From a candidate division WOR-3 bacterium (GTDB lineage: Bacteria; Hydrothermota; Hydrothermia; LBFQ01; DSFT01): a DNA stretch of 16,505 bases. The notes below the pieces were generated by a model. It worked only from the letters and a program-made list of their open reading frames with translations. It had not been told where the DNA came from and searched no databases. Each line of letters starts with the position of its first letter. Positions within the stretch are counted from its first letter, which is position 1. The position numbers were made by a program, and so were the translations under genes. Shown piece after piece: positions 3-16,505 of this stretch. The stretch lies in the NCBI GenBank assembly GCA_965649115.1, contig CBFGJN010000044.1, positions 1 to 16,505 on the forward strand, in the 5' to 3' direction.

Positions 3-233
3 CTTGGTATAGTTGCAATACCTTATAATCCTTATCATCCCGAGCCATACAATAGATGGACATTAAAGGGTTTATACGACATAGAAAATGGTGAGATCCT
101 CATAGCGGAAGAGTTTTGGGATTTTGTGGCCGGTGAAAGGGTTTTTGATAAATTACTAAAAGTTTTTGAGGAGGCAGGTAGGGTAATAAAACCAAAAATT
201 GATGAATTCCTTAAAAAATTTAATAAACCTTAA
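3..233 (+). CDS. 3' fragment of a TdeIII-family type II restriction endonuclease (gene starts upstream of the window)
   Basis: Not in the ORF track. Frame 3 is open from the window edge to TAA at 231-233: LGIVAIPYNPYHPEPYNRWTLKGLYDIENGEILIAEEFWDFVAGERVFDKLLKVFEEAGRVIKPKIDEFLKKFNKP*. The AIPYNPYxPxPYxRWT...AEEFWDF signature matches the C-terminus of RE_TdeIII-family enzymes. It lies next to a type III R-M pair. Confidence 0.8.
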   Translation, partial: LGIVAIPYNPYHPEPYNRWTLKGLYDIENGEILIAEEFWDFVAGERVFDKLLKVFEEAGRVIKPKIDEFLKKFNKP

Positions 234-243
234 AATTTTAAAT

Positions 244-2811
244 ATGAACTATAAGGAAAAATTTTATAATTTATTAGGGGAAATGTTTATTGGAGATACT
301 AAGATAGAAGGGCAAGGGGGATATATAAATTTATTGAAATTCAAGAAAAATTATTATGATAAAGTTTTTAAACAAAAACTTGAAGAAAAAGTAAATGAAG
401 TTTTAACAAAATATCCTAGTTTTGAGACAGAGCTTTTTGAAAAACTTTATACTTTCTTCTCTCGTTATTTTTCTGAATCAGGCTCAATTTATTTTGTTAA
501 TACTCCATTTTATCATCAAATTTATGAAAGAATTTACACTGATAGGGAAGATGTAATTTTATTTTGGAAAACAAGAGACCTTTATTACATAAAAACAGAT
601 AGAATTTTCAAAAGTTTAGAAATTGAAATAGAAAATTATAAATTTTATTTTGATGTTTCAAAGCTTGAATACAAAAAAGCAAACGAAAAAAGAGAAATAA
701 TTTATGAACTTGATATTGAAAAAACAACAAAAGATAAAATTTACTTTTATGTTTATTATTCAGAAAGAGGAAGAACAACGAAAATTGAAGAGATATTAAA
801 AGCATTAAAAAAGAAAGATATTAAACTTAGTGAAGAAATTTTAGAAAAAGCATTTAGAAGATTTGAGCGACAATCAGAAGTAGATTATTTTATTCATAAA
901 AATGCAAAAGCTTTCTTAACGGAGCAATTAAAACTTTATATTTATAACTACCTTTTTAAAGAAACTCAAAACTGGACAATTGAAAGAATTGATCAGATAA
1001 ATAAACTTAAAGAAACCGCTGAACTTATAATTGATTTTGTTTCCAAATTTGAAGATGAATTAGTTAAGATCTGGAACAAACCAAGATTTGTTTTAAATTC
1101 AAATTATGTAATAACTTTTGATAGAATAATAAAACAGAACAAAGAAAAGGGAATTGAAATTATAAAGAAAATAATAAATCATAAAAATTTTGACGAGCAA
1201 GTTAAAGAATGGAAAGAACTTGAAATTATTGATGAAAACTTTGATAAAGATGAAATAATTGAAAAAGATTTAACAGGAGAAAATTTAAATTCAAAATATC
1301 AATTTTTGCCAATTGATACAAAATACTTCAAAGATTTAGAAATTGAAATTTTAGAACTTTTTGATGATTTAGATAATCAATTAGATGGTTGGCTAATAAA
1401 AAGTGAAAATTATCAGGCTTTAAATACAATACTTCCAAAATTTAAAGAGAAAGTTCAGACAATTTATATCGATCCTCCATTTAATAAAGAACAAAATGCT
1501 TATTATCTTTATAATGTTAAATACAAAGATGCCACTTGGATTACATTACTTGAAAATAGATTAAGATTGGCAAAAGATATTCTCAAAGATACAGGAAGCA
1601 TTTTTGTAAGATGCGATTATAATGGCAATATGTTTGTTCGGCTTTTGATGAATGAGATTTTTGGCGAGGAGAATTTTAGGAATGAGATAGTTGTAGGAAG
1701 AACTAAAACAGCACCGTATATAGGAACATCACCTGAAAAGGCAGGTGTAGGCTTCAAGAGTTTAATGGTTGTGTATGATAATATCTATATGTATTCAAAA
1801 AGCGATAAATTTTTCAATAAATTTTCAGAAGGAATTATAGAAGAACAAAGAGAGGCATACTGGAAAGATTTCAAAACATTTTTTGACAGGGAATATAATA
1901 GGTATGAACTGCTCGGAATTATCCCAGAGAAGGGCTGTAGCTGGATGTGGCGTAAAGAAGTAGCGGAAGAAGCAGTTAGAAATTACCAAAAATACTTAGA
2001 GGAATATGAAAAAACTGGTATAAGCTTAGAGGAATATTGGGAAAAGACAGATAGAAAGCTTAACTTTATAAGGAAGGAAGGAAATACACTAAAATACTGG
2101 GTCCCTCCATTTAAAAGAGTTTCTCACAATAACTGGGCAGATTTAGAAGGTTATGGTAGAAATTGGAATTTTCCAACCGAAAACTCCGAAATCCTCTTAA
2201 AGCGTGTCATAGAATCCACCTCAAAGGAAGGCGATTTGGTTATGGACTTCTTTTTAGGAAGTGGCACAACAACAGCAGTAGCACATAAACTTAAAAGAAA
2301 ATGGATTGGAGTAGAAATGGGCGAACATTTTTATACAGTAGTTTTACCGAGAATGAAGAAAGTTTTGGCTTATGATAAATCAGGAATTTCAAAAGAAAAA
2401 GATGTTAAGGAAAAATATAATGAAAATAATGCGGGAGGCTTTTTTAAATACTACGAACTTGAACAATATGAAGAAATCTTAAGAAAAGCCAAATATCAAG
2501 ATATAAATGAACCAAAAACATTATTTGATAAAGATTTCAATTACATTTTTATGCCTGATGAAAAAATGCTATCAGCATTAGAAATTGATTATGAAAACAA
2601 TAAAGTTAAAGTTGATTTAAATAAAATATATTCACAAGAAAGGAAAACAATTGATATTGCCGAAACATTATCAAATTTACTTGGAAAATTTATAAAGAGA
2701 ATTACAAGAAACGAGGTTGAATTTGAAGATGGACAAAAGATAAATTTAAATGATTTAGACTATAAACTTATAAAACCTTTAATATGGTGGTGGGAAAAAA
2801 ATGAAACCTAA
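244..2811 (+). CDS. mod: Type III restriction-modification DNA methyltransferase (Mod subunit), beta-class amino-methyltransferase with long N-terminal extension
   Basis: Catalytic motif IV (IYIDPPFN) precedes motif I (DFFLGSGTT), with the TRD between them, followed by HKLKRKWIGVEMGEHF and GGFFKYYELEQYE. It overlaps the res start by 11 nt. ATG 244 is preferred over 199 because 199 lies inside the upstream endonuclease gene. Confidence 0.93.
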   Translation: MNYKEKFYNLLGEMFIGDTKIEGQGGYINLLKFKKNYYDKVFKQKLEEKVNEVLTKYPSFETELFEKLYTFFSRYFSESGSIYFVNTPFYHQIYERIYTDREDVILFWKTRDLYYIKTDRIFKSLEIEIENYKFYFDVSKLEYKKANEKREIIYELDIEKTTKDKIYFYVYYSERGRTTKIEEILKALKKKDIKLSEEILEKAFRRFERQSEVDYFIHKNAKAFLTEQLKLYIYNYLFKETQNWTIERIDQINKLKETAELIIDFVSKFEDELVKIWNKPRFVLNSNYVITFDRIIKQNKEKGIEIIKKIINHKNFDEQVKEWKELEIIDENFDKDEIIEKDLTGENLNSKYQFLPIDTKYFKDLEIEILELFDDLDNQLDGWLIKSENYQALNTILPKFKEKVQTIYIDPPFNKEQNAYYLYNVKYKDATWITLLENRLRLAKDILKDTGSIFVRCDYNGNMFVRLLMNEIFGEENFRNEIVVGRTKTAPYIGTSPEKAGVGFKSLMVVYDNIYMYSKSDKFFNKFSEGIIEEQREAYWKDFKTFFDREYNRYELLGIIPEKGCSWMWRKEVAEEAVRNYQKYLEEYEKTGISLEEYWEKTDRKLNFIRKEGNTLKYWVPPFKRVSHNNWADLEGYGRNWNFPTENSEILLKRVIESTSKEGDLVMDFFLGSGTTTAVAHKLKRKWIGVEMGEHFYTVVLPRMKKVLAYDKSGISKEKDVKEKYNENNAGGFFKYYELEQYEEILRKAKYQDINEPKTLFDKDFNYIFMPDEKMLSALEIDYENNKVKVDLNKIYSQERKTIDIAETLSNLLGKFIKRITRNEVEFEDGQKINLNDLDYKLIKPLIWWWEKNET

Positions 2812-5698
2812 GTTAATTTTAAGAGAAATTATTGAAAATATAGAGCTTAAAAATTTACCCTATAATTGGCAGAATTTTGATTTTGAGAGCTTTTCAAAAG
2901 ATAAGAAGCTTTATGATTTTCAAATTGAGGCATTAGAGAATTTTTTAAAAGTTTTGTGGTTTTATTATGAAAAGGACTTTGATTATCAAGGAGGAGAAAA
3001 TTTAGAAATGAATGATAAAAGAAAAGAAAAATTATTTAAAGAATATTTAGATTATGATTTAAATCGTAAAGATGTTTCTCTTAAATATAAAGAAGAAAAG
3101 AAACATAAATTTATTTTTGAGTATTATCCATTAGAAAATGAAGAAATAAGTTTTAAGCATCTGGTGAATAGAGCTGGGTTTTGGATGGCGACAGGAAGCG
3201 GAAAAACATTAGTAATTGTTAAAATTATTGAATTTTTAAGGGAACTTATGAAAAGAAAAGAAATTCCTAGTTTTGATATTTTATTTTTAACTCACAGAGA
3301 AGACCTAATAAATCAATTTAAAAAGCATATTGAAGAATATAACGAAGGCAGGGAAGAGAGAATTAAAGTTTATGATTTAAAAGAATACGAAAAATTAAAA
3401 AGAAGTTTATTTGATCAAAATTTTGTTTTTTACTATAGGGCTGATTTATTTTCTGATGAAGAAAAAGAAAAGATTGTAGATTTTAGAAATTATTATAATA
3501 ATGGAAAATGGTTTGTAATTTTGGATGAAGCTCATAAAGGTGATACCGAAGAATCAAAAAGACAGCATATATTTTCAATACTTTCTAAAAATGGATTTCT
3601 ATTTAATTTTTCGGCAACTTTTAGCGATACTATTGATTTAATTACAACTTGTTTTGAATATAACCTTTCAACATTTATTGAAAATGGTTATGGGAAGAAA
3701 ATTTATATTTCAGATTATGAAGTAAGAGCTTTTAAAGAAAAATTTAGAAAAGAAGAAAAGCAAAAAATTATTTTAAAAGGCTTAATTCTTTTAACTTATA
3801 TTAAAAAGCAGCTAAATAAAATTAGAGAAAAAATTCCCAATTCTTATCATAATCCATTGCTCCTTGTTTTAGTGAATTCTGTAAATCGAGAGGATGCTGA
3901 TTTAAAGTTATTTTTTGAAGAAATTAAAAACATAGCAGAGGGAGATTTTGATAAAAATTTAATTGAAGAGGTAAAAAAGGAAATAAAAAAAGGGTTTGAG
4001 GAAAAAAGAAAGTTTGATATTCCAGAGAATGATGAATTAAAAATAGATTTTAGCTTGTTCTCACAAATAAGTTATGACGATATTTTAAAAGAGGTTTTTA
4101 ATACTACCAACGAAGGAAAAATAGAAATTTCTTATAGTCCCCGAGAAAAAGGAGAAGTTGCTTTTAAATTAAAAACATCTCCTTCTCATTTTGCTTTAAT
4201 TAAAACAGGAACTATGCCAGATTGGCTTGAAAGTTCTTTAAATCAATTTGAGATTAACCATGAATTTGAAAACGAGAAGTTTTTTGAAGAAATAAATAGT
4301 GAAAATTCATCAATAAATATATTATTAGGTTCAAGAGTTTTTTATGAAGGATGGGATTCAAATAGACCAAATATTATTATGTTTATAAATATAGGTACGC
4401 AAAAAGATGCTAAAAAATTCGTTTTACAATCAATTGGAAGAGGCGTAAGAATTGAACCAATAAAAAATGAAAGAAAGAGGTTATTGTCTATTAAAGAAAA
4501 AATCGGTGATATTTTTGATGAAATTAAAGATAATGCTTCTTCAATAGAAAGTTTATTTATTTTTGGAACTAATAAAAATGCTATTGAAACTATAATTAAC
4601 GAGGTTAATACATTCAAAAAAGAAACATTTAGGGGTGTTAAAATCTCTCTTTTAAAAAATGTTGAAGCAATTAAAGAAAATATTTTGTTGGTGCCGAAAT
4701 ATAAAGAAGGAGAAAAAAGAATTTTTGAAGAAGGGATCAGATATGGAATTTCTGAAAATGATTTTGAAAAATTAAAAGAATTTAATGAATTTATTAAAGA
4801 TGACAGAGTTTTGTTAATGCTTTTTAATACTGAGCCAAAATTAATTAAATATTTTAGGGAATCTTTAACTAAACAAGTGAAATTGGATAATGGAAATTAT
4901 TATAAAAGATCAGATTTAGAAAGAGATGATGTTAGAGTAATTTTAAATGATATTTTTAGTTTTTGGGGAGCAAGATTTAAAGATTTTGAAAAATTGGAGG
5001 AATTAAAAGATGAAATAAGGCATTTTGAGAATGTTGTTATTGAGGAAGTTAAATTCAAAGATTTTAACTCTATAAAAGAAGCTGTTTTAAGCACAAAAAG
5101 AAGTTTACCTTTTGAAAATTTGAAATTGGAATATATACCTAACCATTATTATTTTCCTTTAATTTTAAGTAAAGATGAAAAAGTTGATTATATTAAACAT
5201 ATTATTAAGACAAAAAGTGAAGTTGAATTTATTGAAAAACTTGAAAATTACTTAAATTCAGAAAATAATAAATTTAAAGAATTTGATTGGTGGATGTTTA
5301 GCAAAATTGATGAAAGCTTAGATGAAGTTTATATTCCTTATTACGATACTGAAAAAAGTTCTATAAGAAAATTTAAACCAGATTTTATATTTTGGCTTAA
5401 AAAAGCTAATAATTATTTTATTGTTTTTGTTGATCCAAAATCCACAAAATTCACGGATTATGAAAATAAAATTTATTGGTATAAAAAGTTATTTGAAGAG
5501 AATAACAAACCAAAAGCTTTTAAATACAAAAATTTAAATTGTTATGTATATTGCTTTTTATATACTAATGATAAAGGTAAGGTTAAAGGAACTCCTTATG
5601 AAAATTATTGGTTTGAAAGCATTGATAAAGTTCTTGATAAAATTTTATACTTTAAAATTTTAACCTTGCGGAGGTGGCGGAATTGGCAGACGCGGTAG
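2801..5698 (+). CDS. res: Type III restriction endonuclease (Res subunit): SF2 helicase-like ATPase plus C-terminal PD-(D/E)xK nuclease
   Basis: Walker A MATGSGKT, Walker B ILDEAHKG, motif III FSATF, EGWDSNRPN, motif VI QSIGRGVR, nuclease motif FKPDFIFW...FVDPKS. Translationally coupled to mod. Confidence 0.93.
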   Translation: MKPKLILREIIENIELKNLPYNWQNFDFESFSKDKKLYDFQIEALENFLKVLWFYYEKDFDYQGGENLEMNDKRKEKLFKEYLDYDLNRKDVSLKYKEEKKHKFIFEYYPLENEEISFKHLVNRAGFWMATGSGKTLVIVKIIEFLRELMKRKEIPSFDILFLTHREDLINQFKKHIEEYNEGREERIKVYDLKEYEKLKRSLFDQNFVFYYRADLFSDEEKEKIVDFRNYYNNGKWFVILDEAHKGDTEESKRQHIFSILSKNGFLFNFSATFSDTIDLITTCFEYNLSTFIENGYGKKIYISDYEVRAFKEKFRKEEKQKIILKGLILLTYIKKQLNKIREKIPNSYHNPLLLVLVNSVNREDADLKLFFEEIKNIAEGDFDKNLIEEVKKEIKKGFEEKRKFDIPENDELKIDFSLFSQISYDDILKEVFNTTNEGKIEISYSPREKGEVAFKLKTSPSHFALIKTGTMPDWLESSLNQFEINHEFENEKFFEEINSENSSINILLGSRVFYEGWDSNRPNIIMFINIGTQKDAKKFVLQSIGRGVRIEPIKNERKRLLSIKEKIGDIFDEIKDNASSIESLFIFGTNKNAIETIINEVNTFKKETFRGVKISLLKNVEAIKENILLVPKYKEGEKRIFEEGIRYGISENDFEKLKEFNEFIKDDRVLLMLFNTEPKLIKYFRESLTKQVKLDNGNYYKRSDLERDDVRVILNDIFSFWGARFKDFEKLEELKDEIRHFENVVIEEVKFKDFNSIKEAVLSTKRSLPFENLKLEYIPNHYYFPLILSKDEKVDYIKHIIKTKSEVEFIEKLENYLNSENNKFKEFDWWMFSKIDESLDEVYIPYYDTEKSSIRKFKPDFIFWLKKANNYFIVFVDPKSTKFTDYENKIYWYKKLFEENNKPKAFKYKNLNCYVYCFLYTNDKGKVKGTPYENYWFESIDKVLDKILYFKILTLRRWRNWQTR
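5622..5661 (+). promoter_or_regulatory. Putative sigma70-type promoter for tRNA-Leu/ndk, embedded in the res 3' end
   Basis: TTGATA (5622-5627), 18-nt spacer, TATACT (5646-5651). An alternative -10, TAAAAT at 5653-5658, sits 9 nt before the tRNA. The AT-rich background lowers specificity. Confidence 0.4.
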
Positions 5699-5751
5699 AT
5701 TGAGGGTCTACTGCCCGCAAGGGTGTGAGGGTTCAAGTCCCTCCCTCCGCA
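5668..5751 (+). tRNA. tRNA-Leu (anticodon GAG), class II with long variable arm, 3' CCA not encoded
   Basis: Acceptor stem GCGGAGG/CCTCCGC plus discriminator A; D arm GCG-GAATTGGCAGA-CGC; anticodon arm GTAGA-TTGAGGG-TCTAC; variable arm GCCC-GCAA-GGGT; T arm GAGGG-TTCAAGT-CCCTC. Confidence 0.97.
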
Positions 5752-5753
5752 TT

Positions 5754-7742: not shown

Positions 7743-8575
7743 GCATAATTTTTGTAAATTTTTGGACATCAAAATATATAAAAAAATTGTTAAAAAAACT
7801 TAAAAATGAAAATTTTGAAATTATTGTTTGGAACAATTCAAAAGAAGATGAAATTTTTGATGATGGTATAAAAGTTATAAATAGTCCTTATAATATAGGT
7901 TTTGGTCCAGCTGTTAATAGAGCAGTAAAATTGACAAGTTTTAATTACATTTTACTAATAAATCCAGATTGTGATTTTCAAGTTGATGTTATATATGAAT
8001 TATATAAGTTTTTAAGTAATAATGAAAAAGTATTTGCTGTCAGTCCAAAAATTATATCAAATAATAAAATTTGGCCATCAGCAAGAAGGATAAAAAATCC
8101 GTTTCTATTATTTTTTGGAAGACGTTCTATTTTCAGATTTTCTAAATTAAGTAAAAAATTTCTATATTTAGATGAAAGCGATAAAATTGTTGAGGTTGAA
8201 GGATTAATTGGAACTTTTTTAATGTTCAAAAAAGATATTTTTTTAAAACTTGGTGGATTTGATGAAAAATTTTTTTTCTATGCAGAGGATTTGGATTTAT
8301 CTTTGAGAGCTTATAAAAGTGGATATAAACTTTTTTTATTAAATTACTTAGTAGTTGAACATAGTGTTGGTATTACAAGGAAAATTAAAAATAGTTTTGC
8401 TGAATTTAAAAGAGCAAAATCATTATTTTTATTTATGATAAAAAACTATTTCATTTTTAAATTAGTTTTTCCTTTAATTTTGCTTGGTTTTTTATATTAC
8501 GCTTTAATTTTGATGATTAGGGATTTGTTTGATTTTAAAGTTAAAGATATTGATTTTGCAAATCATTCTCAATAA
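7736..8575 (+). CDS. Glycosyltransferase family 2 (WbbL/rhamnosyltransferase-like)
   Basis: VSIIFVNF, IIVWNNS, NIGFGPAVN, LLINPD (DxD-like), GGFDEKFFFYAEDLDLSLR, VEHSVG. Confidence 0.88.
   Translation: MVSIIFVNFWTSKYIKKLLKKLKNENFEIIVWNNSKEDEIFDDGIKVINSPYNIGFGPAVNRAVKLTSFNYILLINPDCDFQVDVIYELYKFLSNNEKVFAVSPKIISNNKIWPSARRIKNPFLLFFGRRSIFRFSKLSKKFLYLDESDKIVEVEGLIGTFLMFKKDIFLKLGGFDEKFFFYAEDLDLSLRAYKSGYKLFLLNYLVVEHSVGITRKIKNSFAEFKRAKSLFLFMIKNYFIFKLVFPLILLGFLYYALILMIRDLFDFKVKDIDFANHSQ
8556..8572. promoter_or_regulatory. Putative Fur-family (iron-responsive) operator upstream of the FTR1 permease
   Basis: TTGCAAAT-C-ATTCTCAA matches 11 of 14 positions of the 7-1-7 Fur consensus TGATAAT-N-ATTATCA. 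It lies just upstream of a TAAAAT -10 candidate (8585-8590) and ~47 nt before the FTR1 ATG. Confidence 0.55.
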
Positions 8576-8618
8576 AAATAACTTTAAAATTTCTGACTTT
8601 TTAAGTAAGAAATTAGTT

Positions 8619-10616
8619 ATGCTTTTGATAATAATAAATTTAAACCAGCCTTTAAAAATCCTTAATATTGTTGATTATATATTTTCAGATTATGAAAAAG
8701 CTATAAATGATAGTTCTGAATATAGAGAAATGCTTGAATTTTCAAAAAATCTTCTTGAATTATCAGATAGTTCAATTCTAAATTACTCAAAAAATGTTTA
8801 TGAACTAATAAAAAATAAGGAAAATCCTAAAAAAGTAAAATCTGAACTCTCAAAAATTAGAGAAATTATATTAAATAGTCAAAATTTAGAGATTTATCCA
8901 AAAAATCCTATTTCATTAAAATCTGGAAGAGAAATTTACCTTTATAACTGTGCAGTTTGCCATGGAGATAAAGGAGATGGAAATGGTCCTGCAAGTAAAA
9001 CACTAAATCCAAAACCTGCTAATTTTTTAGAAAGGTACGATTTAAGCCCTTTAAGAATATGGACGATTTTGAATGTTGGCCTTGTAAATATGCCATCATT
9101 TAATAATTTGTCTGATGATGAAAAATGGAATGTTGCTTTTTATGTTCTATCCATAAAATATCAAAATGCTCAAAAGAAAAAAGTAGATAATAAATTTGAT
9201 TTAAAATTGATTTCAAAATTATCTGATGAGAACTTAAAGGAAATGGGTTATAAATCTGACGAGATCGCTTACATTAGGACTAATATAGAAAATTTAATAG
9301 AAAAGAAAGATCACTTTTATGAAATTTTTAGCACACTTAATTTAATAAAGAATCTATATCAAAAAGGAGAATATGAAAAGGCATATAGTTTATCTGTTGA
9401 TTTATATTTTAATGATTTTGAGCCAATAGAAAAGAACTTATTTGCTAAGGATTTTAGTTTTGCTTCAAAGTTAGAGCAGAAATTTACCCAACTTAGAGGA
9501 ATTGTTAGACAGAAAGATAAAGAAAAAGAGGTTGAGAATTTAATTTTAAGCATAAAAAATGATTTGGAAAGGGCAAGAGATATTCTTGAAGGAAAAGCAT
9601 TTTCTGGTAATTGGGCATTTTTTAATTCATTTACAATCATATTTAGAGAAGGACTTGAAGTGGCAATTTTATTTGGGATTATTTTAAGTATTGTAAAATT
9701 AAGTGAAAGTAGATTAGCTGTAGTGGTTTCTTATCTTGGTTTAATAAGTGCTTTATTACTTGGAATTATAACTTGGATATTATCACAATTTATTATTAGT
9801 ATATCTACAATTCAAAGGGAAATGATTGAAGGTATTGTTAGTTTATTGGCAGCAATTGTTTTATTTCAAGTTTCTTATTGGCTTATTAGTAAATCTGAAA
9901 GTAAAATATGGATTGGTTATATTAAAGAAAAACTAAAATCTTCCTTAAATAAAAGTAATTTGTTTTTTATTTTTTCTTTAAGTTTTCTTGCTGGTTATAG
10001 AGAAGCATTTGAAACAGTTTTATTTTATCAAGCAATGATTATGAATACACCTAAAACTGATTTGAATTATGTAATTCTTGGGTTTTTATTTGGGTTAGCT
10101 TCAATCATTATTATTAGTTATGGAATTTTAAAATTACAATTAAAACTACCTTTAAATTTAATTTTTCCAATTACAGGTTCAATTTTATATGTTCTTTCAT
10201 TTATTTTTACAGGTCAAGCAATTAGAAGTTTTCAAGAAGCGAATTTAATTTCTACAACTTCTTTAAACTTTTTACCCACAATTGATTTCTTAGGTATTTA
10301 TCCTACCTTAGAAACTACATTAGCTCAAAGCATATTTATTTTTCTTGTTATTTTGGCAGTAATTATTATTAAAAAAGAAAACAAAAAGAAAGAAAAATTA
10401 TTAAGCGAGGTTGAAATTGCAGAAAAAGAAATTTTAAATATAATAAAGAGCATTAACGATGCAAAAGATAGAATATGTAAATATCAAAACCTAATAGTAA
10501 ATGTAGTTGAAGTTTCTGATAAATTAAAAAATGCACTTCTCCATATTCAAAATCTTGAAATTGCCCTTAAAGAAATTCAAAATGATATAACATTAAAGAG
10601 AAAAAATGGTTCTTAG
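8619..10616 (+). CDS. Cytochrome c / FTR1-family high-affinity iron permease (PbrT/EfeU-like fusion)
   Basis: Heme-binding CAVCHG with GDGNGP and a distal Met (NMPSF). Two RExxE iron-permease motifs (FREGLEV, YREAFET) in a multi-TM domain, and LGIYPTLET. ATG 8619 is preferred over TTG 8529, which overlaps the GT2 gene. Confidence 0.9.
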   Translation: MLLIIINLNQPLKILNIVDYIFSDYEKAINDSSEYREMLEFSKNLLELSDSSILNYSKNVYELIKNKENPKKVKSELSKIREIILNSQNLEIYPKNPISLKSGREIYLYNCAVCHGDKGDGNGPASKTLNPKPANFLERYDLSPLRIWTILNVGLVNMPSFNNLSDDEKWNVAFYVLSIKYQNAQKKKVDNKFDLKLISKLSDENLKEMGYKSDEIAYIRTNIENLIEKKDHFYEIFSTLNLIKNLYQKGEYEKAYSLSVDLYFNDFEPIEKNLFAKDFSFASKLEQKFTQLRGIVRQKDKEKEVENLILSIKNDLERARDILEGKAFSGNWAFFNSFTIIFREGLEVAILFGIILSIVKLSESRLAVVVSYLGLISALLLGIITWILSQFIISISTIQREMIEGIVSLLAAIVLFQVSYWLISKSESKIWIGYIKEKLKSSLNKSNLFFIFSLSFLAGYREAFETVLFYQAMIMNTPKTDLNYVILGFLFGLASIIIISYGILKLQLKLPLNLIFPITGSILYVLSFIFTGQAIRSFQEANLISTTSLNFLPTIDFLGIYPTLETTLAQSIFIFLVILAVIIIKKENKKKEKLLSEVEIAEKEILNIIKSINDAKDRICKYQNLIVNVVEVSDKLKNALLHIQNLEIALKEIQNDITLKRKNGS

Positions 10617-10644
10617 TAATAGGGCTTAAATATTTGTCCAAATT

Positions 10645-10748
10645 TTATTGGGGGTTTTTTGAGAAGGGGGGTGAAGCCCCCTTGCCGAAATATGGGTATT
10701 TTAAAGCCGTAGGCTTAATTATAGGGTGGGTGGGGAAAATGAGAAATA
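10645..10748 (+). repeat. Intergenic hairpin/G-tract repeat, copy 1 (long form, two hairpins)
   Basis: TTGGGGGTTTTTT - hairpin A (AGGGGGGT-GAA-GCCCCCTT, 10665-10683) - GCCGAAATATGGGTATTTT - hairpin B (AAGCC-GTA-GGCTT, 10704-10716) - GGGTGGGTGGGG (10724-10735) - AAAAT. Confidence 0.85.
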
Positions 10749-10814
10749 ACCATTAAATGATATTAAGTAATTGATTATCAATAATTTGTAAAAGCTTTAA
10801 GGAGATTTTTGATT

Positions 10815-10884
10815 TAATTGGGGTTTTTTAAGCCGAAGGCTTAATTAGGGTGGGTGGGAAAATAAAGAAAAATATATATTTCTA
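10815..10884 (+). repeat. Intergenic hairpin/G-tract repeat, copy 2 (short form)
   Basis: TTGGGGTTTT - TTAAGCC-GAA-GGCTTAA - TTA - GGGTGGGTGGG (10848-10858) - AAAATAAAGAAAAATATATATTTCTA. Confidence 0.85.
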
Positions 10885-10923
10885 AACGATATAAAACAAT
10901 AATGCTTTAAAATTTTCATTCTT

Positions 10924-11739
10924 ATGTCATATAGTATTGAAAAATTATGGAAAGAATTTAATTCAAAACTTGAAGAATATATAGATATTTATCTTCCAAA
11001 AGAAAATGAGAAACCATCAATTTTACATCAAGCAATGAGATATAGTTTGAGTGGAGGTAAAAGAGTAAGACCTTTCTTAGCTTTTATAGGTTATAAGCTA
11101 AATAAAGATGAGGTAATTGATGAATTGTACGATTTGGCATTAGCACTTGAACTTATCCACAATTTTTCGCTTGTACATGATGATTTACCAGCTCTTGACA
11201 ATGATGATTACAGGAGAGGCAAATTAACAGTTCATAAAAAATTTTCAGAAGCAATAGCGATACTAACTGGTGATGCTCTTTTTGCTTACGCTTTTAAAAT
11301 TTTAAATAAATTAGACAAGAAAATTATTGACATTATCTTAGATGCTCTTTTAAGTAATGGTATGATAGGAGGACAAGTCATTGATATTCAGAAAGATATA
11401 AAGAATTTAGATGAGTTAATGGATTTACACTATTATAAAACAGGTAAATTAATAGAAGCAAGTATTGTTTCAGGATATGTTCTTGCAGGTGGAGAAAAAT
11501 TAGAAGTTTTAAGAATTATTGGTAAAAATATAGGTCTAATTTTCCAAATTGTTGATGATATTCTAGATAAGGAAAAAAATGAGGATATTACGATTTTAAA
11601 ATTCTTGGATTATAAATCAGTAGAAAAGCTGTTAGCAGAAATGAAAGATATTACAATTAAACTTATTGAGGAAAACTTTGAAAAGAATGGTTATTTGCTA
11701 AAAAATTTCGTTTTTTATCTTTTGAATAGAAATGAATAA
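10924..11739 (+). CDS. ispA: Short-chain polyprenyl diphosphate synthase (FPP/GGPP synthase)
   Basis: GGKRVRP, first Asp-rich motif IHNFSLVHDDLPALDNDDYRRGK (aromatic Phe five residues before the motif, typical of short-chain enzymes), GGQVID, KTGKL, second motif FQIVDDILD. Confidence 0.92.
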   Translation: MSYSIEKLWKEFNSKLEEYIDIYLPKENEKPSILHQAMRYSLSGGKRVRPFLAFIGYKLNKDEVIDELYDLALALELIHNFSLVHDDLPALDNDDYRRGKLTVHKKFSEAIAILTGDALFAYAFKILNKLDKKIIDIILDALLSNGMIGGQVIDIQKDIKNLDELMDLHYYKTGKLIEASIVSGYVLAGGEKLEVLRIIGKNIGLIFQIVDDILDKEKNEDITILKFLDYKSVEKLLAEMKDITIKLIEENFEKNGYLLKNFVFYLLNRNE

Positions 11740-13759: not shown

Positions 13760-14777
13760 TTACTAAGTGGAGGTAGGGATTTCTTTCCCTACCATTAATA
13801 GCAAAAATTATTTTAATATTTTCGTTTCCTATTCCCAAACCATAGCTATATAGCATTCTACTTTTGTTAATCCAATAAGTTTGGATAATAGGATAAAAAA
13901 TAAAAAATTTTGGCTCAAATGTTAAAAGTGCATAATTATTACAAATAATTGAGTTTTCAATATATCCTAAAATGCTTTCAGATCCTCCAATAGCAACACT
14001 ATCTATTTGATTAAATAACATTTCAAAATTTAAAAATCTAACTTTTGTTTTCAAAAAAAATTTATAAAAAAAATTTATCTCATCGATTCTAAAATTGAAA
14101 ATTTTACTTTCATAACCTCCAATAATACCCATTCTGCTATTAAGTGCTCTAAAACCAAAAAAATAACCCTTTAAATTAAAATAACTTTCAAAATTATAAT
14201 CGCTTAAATTCCTATAATATCTAAAAGTCCATTTGTTTAAAATTTTAATTGGAATTGGGAATTCAAGTGAAAAATTAAGGTAGTTCCTCTTGTAAGAAAA
14301 ACTTAAAAAATCAAAATTTAAATTTATATTACCATTTAAAAAACTATCAGAAATCGTTAAACCTCCGAAAGCATTAAAAGGAAATTTTTCATTTTCAAAT
14401 AATAAATAATTTTCATAGATTTTCATTGAACTTCTCAAATTGTAAAATTCATCAAGAACCTTAACTTGATTTTCAATTTTTGAACGATTTATAATTGTTC
14501 TTTTAAAATTTTTTAGAAATTCATTATAAATTATTGTCTTTGAATAATAGTTTGAAAATTTTAAGTCCTTAATGATATAAATGAAATTTTTTTTAAATTG
14601 GCAAGTTATAAAAATTGTGTCTGAAAGTTTTAGAATTTCAATAACTTTGAATTCTGAAAATGGATATCCTTTATTTGAGAATTCATCAATTAAATTTTTT
14701 ATTTCAATTTGGGGATTCTTGGTAATTTTTTCAAAATTCGTATCACCTATTATTTTAAGTACAAAAATTCCTTCCAT
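13749..14777 (-). CDS. Hypothetical protein, probably a reduced/divergent Omp85 (BamA/TamA-like) family member
   Basis: N-terminal POTRA-like NKGYPFS. The C-terminal half is rich in aromatic beta-strands, with an L6-like segment AIGGSESILGYIENS and YSYGLGIG. The family assignment is inferred from motifs only. Confidence 0.5.
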   Translation of the reverse strand: MEGIFVLKIIGDTNFEKITKNPQIEIKNLIDEFSNKGYPFSEFKVIEILKLSDTIFITCQFKKNFIYIIKDLKFSNYYSKTIIYNEFLKNFKRTIINRSKIENQVKVLDEFYNLRSSMKIYENYLLFENEKFPFNAFGGLTISDSFLNGNINLNFDFLSFSYKRNYLNFSLEFPIPIKILNKWTFRYYRNLSDYNFESYFNLKGYFFGFRALNSRMGIIGGYESKIFNFRIDEINFFYKFFLKTKVRFLNFEMLFNQIDSVAIGGSESILGYIENSIICNNYALLTFEPKFFIFYPIIQTYWINKSRMLYSYGLGIGNENIKIIFAINGRERNPYLHLVIKS

Positions 14778-15247
14778 CTTTCATCTGGGATATTATCTCT
14801 TAAAATATGTAATTCAAAATAAGTTGGTTTTCTTGGTTTTGATAAAAGCTTCATTCCAGCCTCTTCTGGTGTTAAATCTCCTTTTTTTAAATTACACTTT
14901 ACGCAGGCACAAACAAGATTTTCCCAACTTTCTTTCCCACCTCTTGATTTTGGAATTATATGGTCAACTGTAAATGGTCCTTTTTGAGTTCCACAATACT
15001 GACAAGTTCTTCTATCTCTTAAAATAATGTTTTTCTTTGATAGTGGTGGTTCTCTAAACTTAACTTTTACATAGTACTTTAATCTAATAACACTTGGCTC
15101 AGGTATTGCTATATTTTCCGATTTAATAAGTTTATCATTGGAATAAACAATCTCTGCTTTTAGTGAGAAAATGAGTTTTATAGCTCTTCTTACACTAACG
15201 ATATTTAAAGGCTCATAAGTTTGATTTAAAAGCAAAACCCGGCTCAA
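14750..15247 (-). CDS. HNH endonuclease (McrA-like, widespread stand-alone family)
   Basis: VLLLNQTYEPL N-terminus, PSVIRL, RDRRTCQYCG, TVDHIIPKSRGG, WENLVCACVKCNLKKG. TTG start. Confidence 0.9.
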   Translation of the reverse strand: MSRVLLLNQTYEPLNIVSVRRAIKLIFSLKAEIVYSNDKLIKSENIAIPEPSVIRLKYYVKVKFREPPLSKKNIILRDRRTCQYCGTQKGPFTVDHIIPKSRGGKESWENLVCACVKCNLKKGDLTPEEAGMKLLSKPRKPTYFELHILRDNIPDERWKEFLYLK

Positions 15248-16370: not shown

Positions 16371-16424
16371 ATTGAAAATTTTAAAGGATAAAAAATTTCT
16401 AATCAGTGCTGTGTCTAGTAATTC

Positions 16425-16502
16425 TAAAAATATAATTATTTCTATATTTTACCCACCCACCCTAAATTCAAGGCTTCGCCTTTAAAATACCCATATTTCG
16501 GC
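16425..16502 (-). repeat. Intergenic hairpin/G-tract repeat, copy 3 (may continue beyond the window edge)
   Basis: The reverse complement reads GCCGAAATATGGGTATTTTA-AAGGC-GAA-GCCTT-GAATTTA-GGGTGGGTGGG-TAAAATATAGAAATAATTATATTTTTA. It shares GCCGAAATATGGGTATTTTAAAG exactly with copy 1. Confidence 0.85.
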
Positions 16503-16505
16503 TAT

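Follow-up and report, generated by a model that had tools for sequence, protein, structure and literature searches.

A hairpin followed by a run of guanines occurs three times in a 16,505-nt stretch of DNA from a candidate division WOR-3 bacterium (contig CBFGJN010000044.1 of assembly GCA_965649115.1, analysed at its full length and called the window below). An initial annotation had taken a unit of about 57 nt around this motif as the element. We find that the motif is very probably the core of a longer element—a miniature inverted-repeat transposable element (MITE) of about 205 bp—and that the 57-nt unit is an internal segment of it. The same annotation had proposed a repeated, non-coding, non-autonomous mobile element, and the further copies that this predicts are present, with 225 exact G-runs genome-wide. 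MITEs as a kind are common and the element belongs to a known kind; an unusual feature is its promoter-anchored, orientation-specific placement on more than half of the host's consensus promoters, tRNA promoters included. On balance we favour active steering of insertion to the promoter as the cause of this placement. A fuller picture is offered tentatively, as a conjecture that may well fail—a transposon family of a thermophilic bacterium, steered to a fixed position and orientation upstream of the -10 box, in which the core would fold as a DNA module (possibly as a quadruplex-duplex hybrid) and either give the element its polarity or tune promoters.

The window's own genome (G000) is a 1.85 Mb assembly of 99 contigs, 94.5% complete and with 27.6% G+C. 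The G-run GGGTGGGTGGG occurs in it in 225 exact copies (120 forward, 105 reverse), and the element was defined by aligning 190 of these, the other 35 being without full flanks or containing N. The alignment gives a consensus of roughly 205-215 nt and makes visible inverted repeats of about 17 bp at the two ends, 5'-TGCTTTGTCYARTAA...TTAYTRGACAAAGCA-3', with identities to the consensus of 0.93 on the left and 0.86 on the right. Between them lie, in order, a module with the palindrome TTGATnATCAA; two G-runs with the hairpin H1 (GGGGGGC-loop-GCCCCCC); GCCGAAAAATGGG; the hairpin H3; the G-run of the core; and an A-rich stretch. A search of G000 with the consensus profile returned 741 matches at E < 0.001, many of them deletion variants, which cover 101,849 nt; this is 5.5% of the genome, and MITE sequence makes up about half of its non-coding DNA. 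The modal length of copies is 200-209 bp. The element is without coding capacity, as indels and loop flips break every frame; the same frame-breaking indels and loop inversions rule out a small-peptide reading of the core, in which an ATG would be followed by the G-run.

The matches include 227 full-length copies, and in 142 of these both ends could be placed for a test of target duplication. The 9-bp flanks are identical at all nine positions in 69 copies and at eight of nine in a further 9, and the duplicated 9-mers vary from copy to copy. Copies also stand in arrays of up to six, head to tail. The MITE is strongly intergenic: on our own crude map of 1,641 open reading frames (ORFs) of at least 90 aa that fill 88% of G000, the overlap with ORFs is below 10% for 87% of profile matches and above half for 3.5%. 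As a separate observation, linkage between polymorphic positions in the element is close to nil, even at a distance of 4 nt (r2 about 0.01); each copy is thus a mosaic, a pattern indicative of recurrent mutation or of short-tract gene conversion among hundreds of copies. At another locus (G000 C23:580-1461) the gene for a 230-aa S-adenosylmethionine-dependent methyltransferase lies between a left and a right end of the element, and C21:9006-9698 holds a paralogue of it with at least 70% identity; two MITE copies may have moved this gene as a composite unit.

The reference point for the placement of the element is a short host sequence. The string CTTTAAA[AC]TTT occurs 632 times in G000; 399 occurrences closely precede a predicted ORF start, 307 of them ending 4-9 nt before it. 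The box also lies within 20 nt of the mature 5' end in 31 of 45 tRNA genes, the tRNA-Leu gene of the window included, and two relatives that are free of the element (G003 and G004) have the same box 6 nt before the ATG of their farnesyl-diphosphate synthase gene. Because it stands near ORF starts and tRNA genes and is kept in element-free relatives, we read the box as the host's -10 promoter region. It is very uniform, (TG)CTTTAAAATTT, with the core TTTAAAAT; we also denote it TGCTTTAAAATTT. Genes directly behind the box, hundreds of them, are probably leaderless; other genes of G000 have a normal AGGAGG ribosome-binding site. A definition of the organism's promoter box, with a large share of its genes probably leaderless, is thus a by-product of the analysis.

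Position and orientation relative to this box are fixed in most copies. We could recognise 410 right ends, of which 96 have the next copy's left end about 9 nt further on. Downstream of the other 314, a match to at least 7 of the 8 bases of TTTAAAAT lies at 19-21 nt in 201 and at 11-13 nt in 31, against 1.8% and 1.7%, respectively, of 5,000 random positions. The 20-nt spacing equals the 9-bp duplication plus 11 nt. No distance peak was found for left ends facing a box. In gaps between co-directional genes 258 copies run with the gene direction and 22 against it (103 and 7 when only full-length copies are counted). A copy lies within 60 nt of 197 of the 364 box promoters, co-oriented with the gene in 159 and opposite in 38; tRNA promoters give seven co-oriented copies and one opposite. 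Copies from other samples repeat the spacing, with 29 at 19-20 nt and 4 at 12 nt among 79 metagenome loci. A literature search found no bacterial insertion sequence or MITE that has promoters as its landmark, and we know of none that uses promoters for integration. The main text of a study of WOR-3 genomics (PMC12542636) makes no mention of transposons, MITEs, repeats or leaderless genes.

To the left of a copy with a perfect duplication there usually stands the right end of another copy, and in arrays every junction has the same 9-mer; the same target has therefore been hit repeatedly. We favour steering over the purging of insertions elsewhere because the peaks are sharp, one target is reused and reversed copies leave no residual peak.

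Comparison with relatives suggests that the element has been active in a narrow lineage. G002 is a sister species of G000 (its farnesyl-diphosphate synthase is 92% identical), and the two genomes differ in which sites are filled. G000 has three copies at C8:27556-28111 and the corresponding G002 locus (L032) has none; the tRNA-Lys promoter on contig C2 of G000 holds a copy with the duplication ACTAAAAAT, and the G002 counterpart (L031) is empty. The reverse case, a copy in G002 and none in G000, is seen at L022 and L030. The repeat-end pattern matches 338 times in G000, 128 times in G002 and once in G003; among 269 further genomes of the phylum, seven have a single match each, and a reversed-pattern control gives 0-1. 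Among these 272 genomes, the MITE thus appears, by sequence matching, to be found only in the lineage of G000 and G002. Words of the window occur in 13 of the 14 sequencing runs listed, with half or more of them in five runs; the runs are mostly labelled as hot-spring metagenomes, 12 of the 13 are DNA, and the single RNA run holds 7% of the window's words.

These observations also bear on the alternative that the host keeps the element as a promoter-upstream module—an insulator, an upstream activating element or a regulator site—and that selection accounts for its placement. More than half of the box promoters carry a copy, mostly co-oriented with the gene; the right arm is rich in A/T tracts; in the 12-nt class the right-repeat hexamer TAGACA/TGGACA lies 17 nt from TTTAAA, which is the spacing of a -35 element; and the genome is compact. 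However, in the main spacing class the hexamer and the box are 25 nt apart, more than a -35 element would allow; among antisense copies near promoters there is no residual peak at the same distance; and arrays reuse one 9-mer. The many sites at which the sister species differ are easier to reconcile with continuing insertion than with fixed modules of ancient origin. A terminator reading is likewise weak, with only 91 terminator-like hairpins inside the 741 matches (68 sense, 23 antisense) and none in the window's gap. We regard a host-maintained module as unlikely.

The core itself contains a hairpin, H3, that stays paired while sites a few bases away vary freely. The initial annotation had noted a stem swap from AAGCC/GGCTT to AAGGC/GCCTT and loops of the form GNA in the window, both evident on reading its sequence, and had argued that compensatory change keeps the hairpin; the genome-wide and metagenome copies agree. 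Stem variants in G000 are AAGCC/GGCTT (267), AAGGC/GCCTT (104), AAAGC/GCTTT (16), AAGCT/AGCTT (11) and GAGCC/GGCTC (7), and the loops are GAA (377), AAA (67) and GTA (49). Copies with the two main stem variants are alike at 51 other polymorphic columns. Paired columns are strongly associated, with r2 of 0.877 for columns 136 and 142 and 0.456 for columns 135 and 143, and columns 136 or 142 reach at most 0.013 against polymorphic sites at distances of 4-9 nt. With a covariance model made from four copies, 116 cores were retrieved in the 79 metagenome loci, and in their 107 distinct rows—an alignment fitted to the structure, which calls for caution with its covariation—94.6% of cells pair against 88.4% when shuffled. 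Both sides have changed in 44 of these cells against 7.1 in shuffles, none of 500 shuffles reaches either value, and slid controls are lower. Taken together, the alignments indicate that the H3 stem is structurally constrained.

The second hairpin, H1, pairs in 78-94% of copies per pair across the family, and metagenome copies show double changes at all 7 of its pairs. Its loop is found in both orientations—GAA 50 and TTC 34, AAA 39 and TTT 27, GGA 11 and TCC 15, AGA 8 and TCT 43—which is a trait of a DNA palindrome, and the palindrome therefore seems to have been inverted repeatedly. Unlike the loop of H1, that of H3 shows no such inversion.

The G-run after H3 raises the question of a quadruplex. 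In this alternative, a quadruplex would form from the four G tracts in single-stranded DNA or RNA, with the hairpin in its long loop; it would serve as the signal for recombination, replication or transcription and account for the conservation of the core. The MITE reading does not conflict with it. Four tracts of at least three G do lie on one strand by sequence, for an upstream GGG is present in 431 of 477 ungapped copies, separated from the G-run by a linker of about 27 nt that holds H3. The G columns are 92-96% identical and the one-base spacers vary (T 85%, C 15%), so that identity is higher in the triplets (94%) than in the spacers (85%). Changes in the spacers show no linkage with one another (r2 0.014) or with other sites, and they therefore recur. 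DNA fold prediction for the window copy gives H1 and H3 and leaves the G-run unpaired (z -1.73; 6 of 200 shuffles fold as well); such predictions return base-paired structures only and so say nothing on the quadruplex itself. Quadruplexes with a long loop that contains a hairpin are a studied class (PMC8501965).

Against this stands the degree of conservation. The mean identity of the G columns, 0.941, is close to that of the left inverted repeat (0.932) and not far from the median column (0.90), so that the G-run is well conserved by this measure, not exceptionally so. All three GGG tracts are present in only 326 of the 477 copies and the run is exact in 227; in a sample from G002 it is exact in 27 of about 60, with G-to-A changes common. 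The fourth tract lies in a less conserved module, and deletion variants supply a different G-run in its place. The initial annotation had placed an upstream GGG in every window copy; this holds for the first and third, but the GGGG of the second (10820-10823) belongs, on comparison with the consensus, to a different module of the element. We do not think that the core is a stand-alone quadruplex signal, and we judge a functional quadruplex of any such kind quite unlikely.

The compensatory changes in the hairpins would also suit an RNA. Each copy might be a small RNA gene or a cis-acting RNA that starts from the internal CTTATAAAAATTT in the left arm, which resembles the host -10 box, and runs through H1 and H3; the co-orientation of copies with genes would be in line with this. 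An Rfam search, which the earlier work had suggested, gave no family match: hits to the element were at noise (E 0.23-0.24, far below gathering scores) and the window yielded only its tRNA-Leu. Folded as RNA, the window copy does no better than shuffles (z 0.08), and an H1 loop in both orientations is a trait of DNA palindromes, not of an RNA loop. We consider the RNA reading very unlikely.

The earlier suggestion of a REP or REPIN element moved by a RAYT (Y1, HUH) transposase has short GC-rich hairpins, an intergenic location and a high copy number in its favour; it fails, and is scarcely credible, because no Y1_Tnp (PF01797) match was found in G000 and because the element has terminal inverted repeats of about 17 bp and 9-bp target duplications, which REPs lack.

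Several points weigh against a MITE that is steered to promoters, and they deserve to be set out together. Flanks of the remaining 64 of the 142 full copies match at only 0-7 of 9 positions and show no clear duplication. Gene calls depend on the crude ORF map. Targeting and purifying selection would both fit the pattern of placement, since a compact genome leaves little tolerated space upstream of promoters. Besides the structure-fitted metagenome alignment, the coupling of the H3 arms could come from hairpin-templated correction during replication instead of selection. The IS903 likeness described below rests on 18 bases and was noticed afterwards.

No mover was found either. Searches of G000 with nine transposase Pfam families (DDE_Tnp_1, DDE_Tnp_1_5, IS256, rve, IS1, ISL3, IS1595, Y1 and TnpB) gave no match, nor did PF01609 (DDE_Tnp_1) in G000 or in G001-G004, four genomes of the genus. 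Pairs of inverted repeats 0.3-6 kb apart in G000 enclose ordinary genes and no autonomous element, and left ends in G002 loci (53) and metagenome loci (84) all continue as MITE sequence.

Other searches for an autonomous partner gave the same result. PF13737 (DDE_Tnp_1_5) has no match in the genus. A 26-nt end pattern was found in at least 47 loci of genome contigs, all from one relative, and in at least 133 stretches of metagenome contigs, of which 79 loci were read, with no autonomous partner among the loci examined in either collection; viral contigs gave no match. ORFs beside unmatched left ends were judged by position and their first 200 bases. A blastn search of plasmids with a full copy found nothing, and Pfam analysis of 14 multi-copy ORFs of G000 returned a methyltransferase, Uma2 nucleases, a peptidase, ankyrin repeats and others, with no transposase. 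The missing partner does not prove absence, because the assembly is incomplete at 94.5%, repeats often drop out of binned assemblies and the collection counts are lower bounds. We also observed a 1,442-bp unit duplicated at 88% identity, its own promoter box included (G000 C11:8049-9490 and C48:4590-6031); it encodes a 473-aa protein without a Pfam match that by eye resembles a multi-pass membrane protein.

The sequence of the ends provides the best lead to a source of the transposase, namely the IS5 family and within it the IS903 group. For IS903B, one passage of PMC10569121 prints the inverted repeat GGCTTTGTTGAATAAATC and a direct repeat of 9 bp. The MITE end TGCTTTGTCCAATAAATA is identical to the former at 14 of 18 positions (compared by eye and post hoc, with this single insertion-sequence end), and the duplication has the same length as the latter (PMC10569121, same passage). 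As the likeness was noticed first and then checked, we treat it as a lead and not as a test.

Under the steered-MITE reading, a trans-acting DDE transposase would make 9-bp staggered cuts, guided to the promoter either by the box sequence or by bound transcription machinery, with one particular element end always facing the promoter. Our best guess for the core is a structured sub-terminal transposon module: it might make the two ends different and so set the orientation, it might fold in single-stranded DNA, or both.

Within the window, the motif stands out as G/C-rich islands against an average G+C of about 26%. The three matches to GGGTGGGTGGG, which lie on the strands and at the places first described, compare with a chance expectation of 0.01, and none of 200 shuffles reached three. 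Table 1 lists the features of the copies and the promoter boxes near them.

Table 1. Copies of the element and host promoter boxes in the window (positions are those of the window; H1 and H3, hairpins of the element).
Feature	Position	Strand	Remarks
Copy A of the MITE	10630..10760	+	Degenerate against the family consensus: left module deleted, right end missing
Left inverted-repeat remnant TTTGTCCAA, copy A	10633-10641	+	By comparison with the family consensus
Hairpin H1, copy A	10664..10683	+	G-run paired with C-run; 7 pairs in the predicted DNA fold
Upstream GGG, copy A	10694..10696	+	Candidate fourth G tract; column 95% conserved in the family
Hairpin H3, copy A	10704..10716	+	AAGCC-GTA-GGCTT; sequence, DNA fold and family covariation
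G-run GGGTGGGTGGG, copy A	10724..10734	+	Exact match
Copy B of the MITE	10762..10900	+	Directly downstream of copy A; by comparison with the consensus
Hairpin H3, copy B	10830-10842	+	AAGCC-GAA-GGCTT; from sequence
G-run, copy B	10848-10858	+	Exact match
Copy C of the MITE	16407..16505	-	Right half only, cut by the contig end; from sequence
Right inverted repeat, copy C	16407-16424	-	From sequence
G-run, copy C	16452-16462	-	Exact match
Hairpin H3, copy C	16470-16482	-	AAGGC-GAA-GCCTT; from sequence
Upstream GGG, copy C	16490-16492	-	From sequence
Host promoter box TGCTTTAAAATTTT (-10 region)	10903..10916	+	7 nt before the ATG at 10924 of the farnesyl-diphosphate synthase gene
Host promoter box CCTTTAAAATTTT	16375..16387	-	4 nt before the ATG (16370) of a TPR-repeat gene
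Host promoter box before tRNA-Leu	5650-5660		From sequence

Judged against the consensus, all three copies are truncated or degenerate versions of the longer repeat. Copy B lacks the left inverted repeat, H1 and the module that follows H1, and its right end is degenerate; it retains the TTGATTATCAA palindrome, and the sister genome G002 has a degenerate MITE copy at the same site. Copy C is co-oriented with its downstream gene, and its end lies 21 nt from the box CCTTTAAAATTTT, within the main spacing class. GC skew in the window follows gene direction.

The neighbouring genes of the window are of some interest in their own right. On the plus strand, the interval 199-5698 encodes an 870-aa protein with an adenine DNA-methyltransferase domain and, after it, a 965-aa ORF without a family match; the two may be paired in restriction-modification or defence. 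The last part of the 965-aa ORF is overlapped by the tRNA-Leu gene (5667-5752). A 695-aa fusion of a cytochrome c domain and an EfeU/Ftr1-type iron permease is encoded at 8529-10616 (plus strand). On the minus strand (14750-15247), a 165-aa ORF has an HNH nuclease domain; the best family match of the ORF is the RNA-guided endonuclease IscB, at 60 bits against a cut-off of 175 bits. It is probably a stand-alone HNH protein.

The load of the element—5.5% of a 1.85 Mb genome, yet with no transposase detected in the assembly—is itself unusual, as is an internal hairpin that keeps its pairing beside freely varying sites. If targeting is true, the family would be a natural means of placing DNA beside promoters with genes left intact, and it would allow a study of how transcription is rewired by mobile DNA in a thermophilic phylum that is little known.

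Known systems share parts of this picture. MITEs derived from IS5-family insertion sequences of the IS903 group are likewise short and non-coding, with inverted repeats and a 9-bp duplication; by eye, the present element matches the IS903B end bases given in PMC10569121 at 14 of 18 positions. The first base of the MITE is T and not G, however, and an IS903-type transposase was not found in the genome or the genus. To our knowledge, IS903 does not home to promoters in one orientation. REP and REPIN elements share the abundant, intergenic, GC-rich hairpins and differ in having neither terminal inverted repeats nor target duplications.

For the core, the nearest systems are long-loop quadruplexes with a hairpin in the loop (PMC8501965) and the G-quadruplex upstream of pilE in Neisseria; shared features are GGG tracts with one-base spacers and a hairpin between tracts. 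In contrast, the element described here has only three contiguous tracts, is a candidate quadruplex by sequence and carries its G-run as a dispersed transposon core, not as a signal at a single locus.

In its placement, the element recalls Tn7 at attTn7 and yeast Ty3 at RNA polymerase III start sites, which insert at a fixed distance from a landmark—Tn7 in one orientation—and spare genes. Tn7 uses TnsABCD and makes a 5-bp duplication, and Ty3 is a long terminal repeat retrotransposon; the landmark here is instead a bacterial -10 box at hundreds of sites, with no targeting protein known. In abundance, it resembles the Correia elements of Neisseria and RUP, BOX and ERIC, which are present as hundreds of intergenic copies of 100-200 bp, have inverted ends, often lie near genes and are able to affect transcription. 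Correia elements duplicate TA and are not known to keep a fixed distance or orientation to a promoter box. Set against that general description, the MITE is distinguished by its 9-bp duplication, its spacing of 20 nt or 12 nt from the box and its 92% co-orientation with genes.

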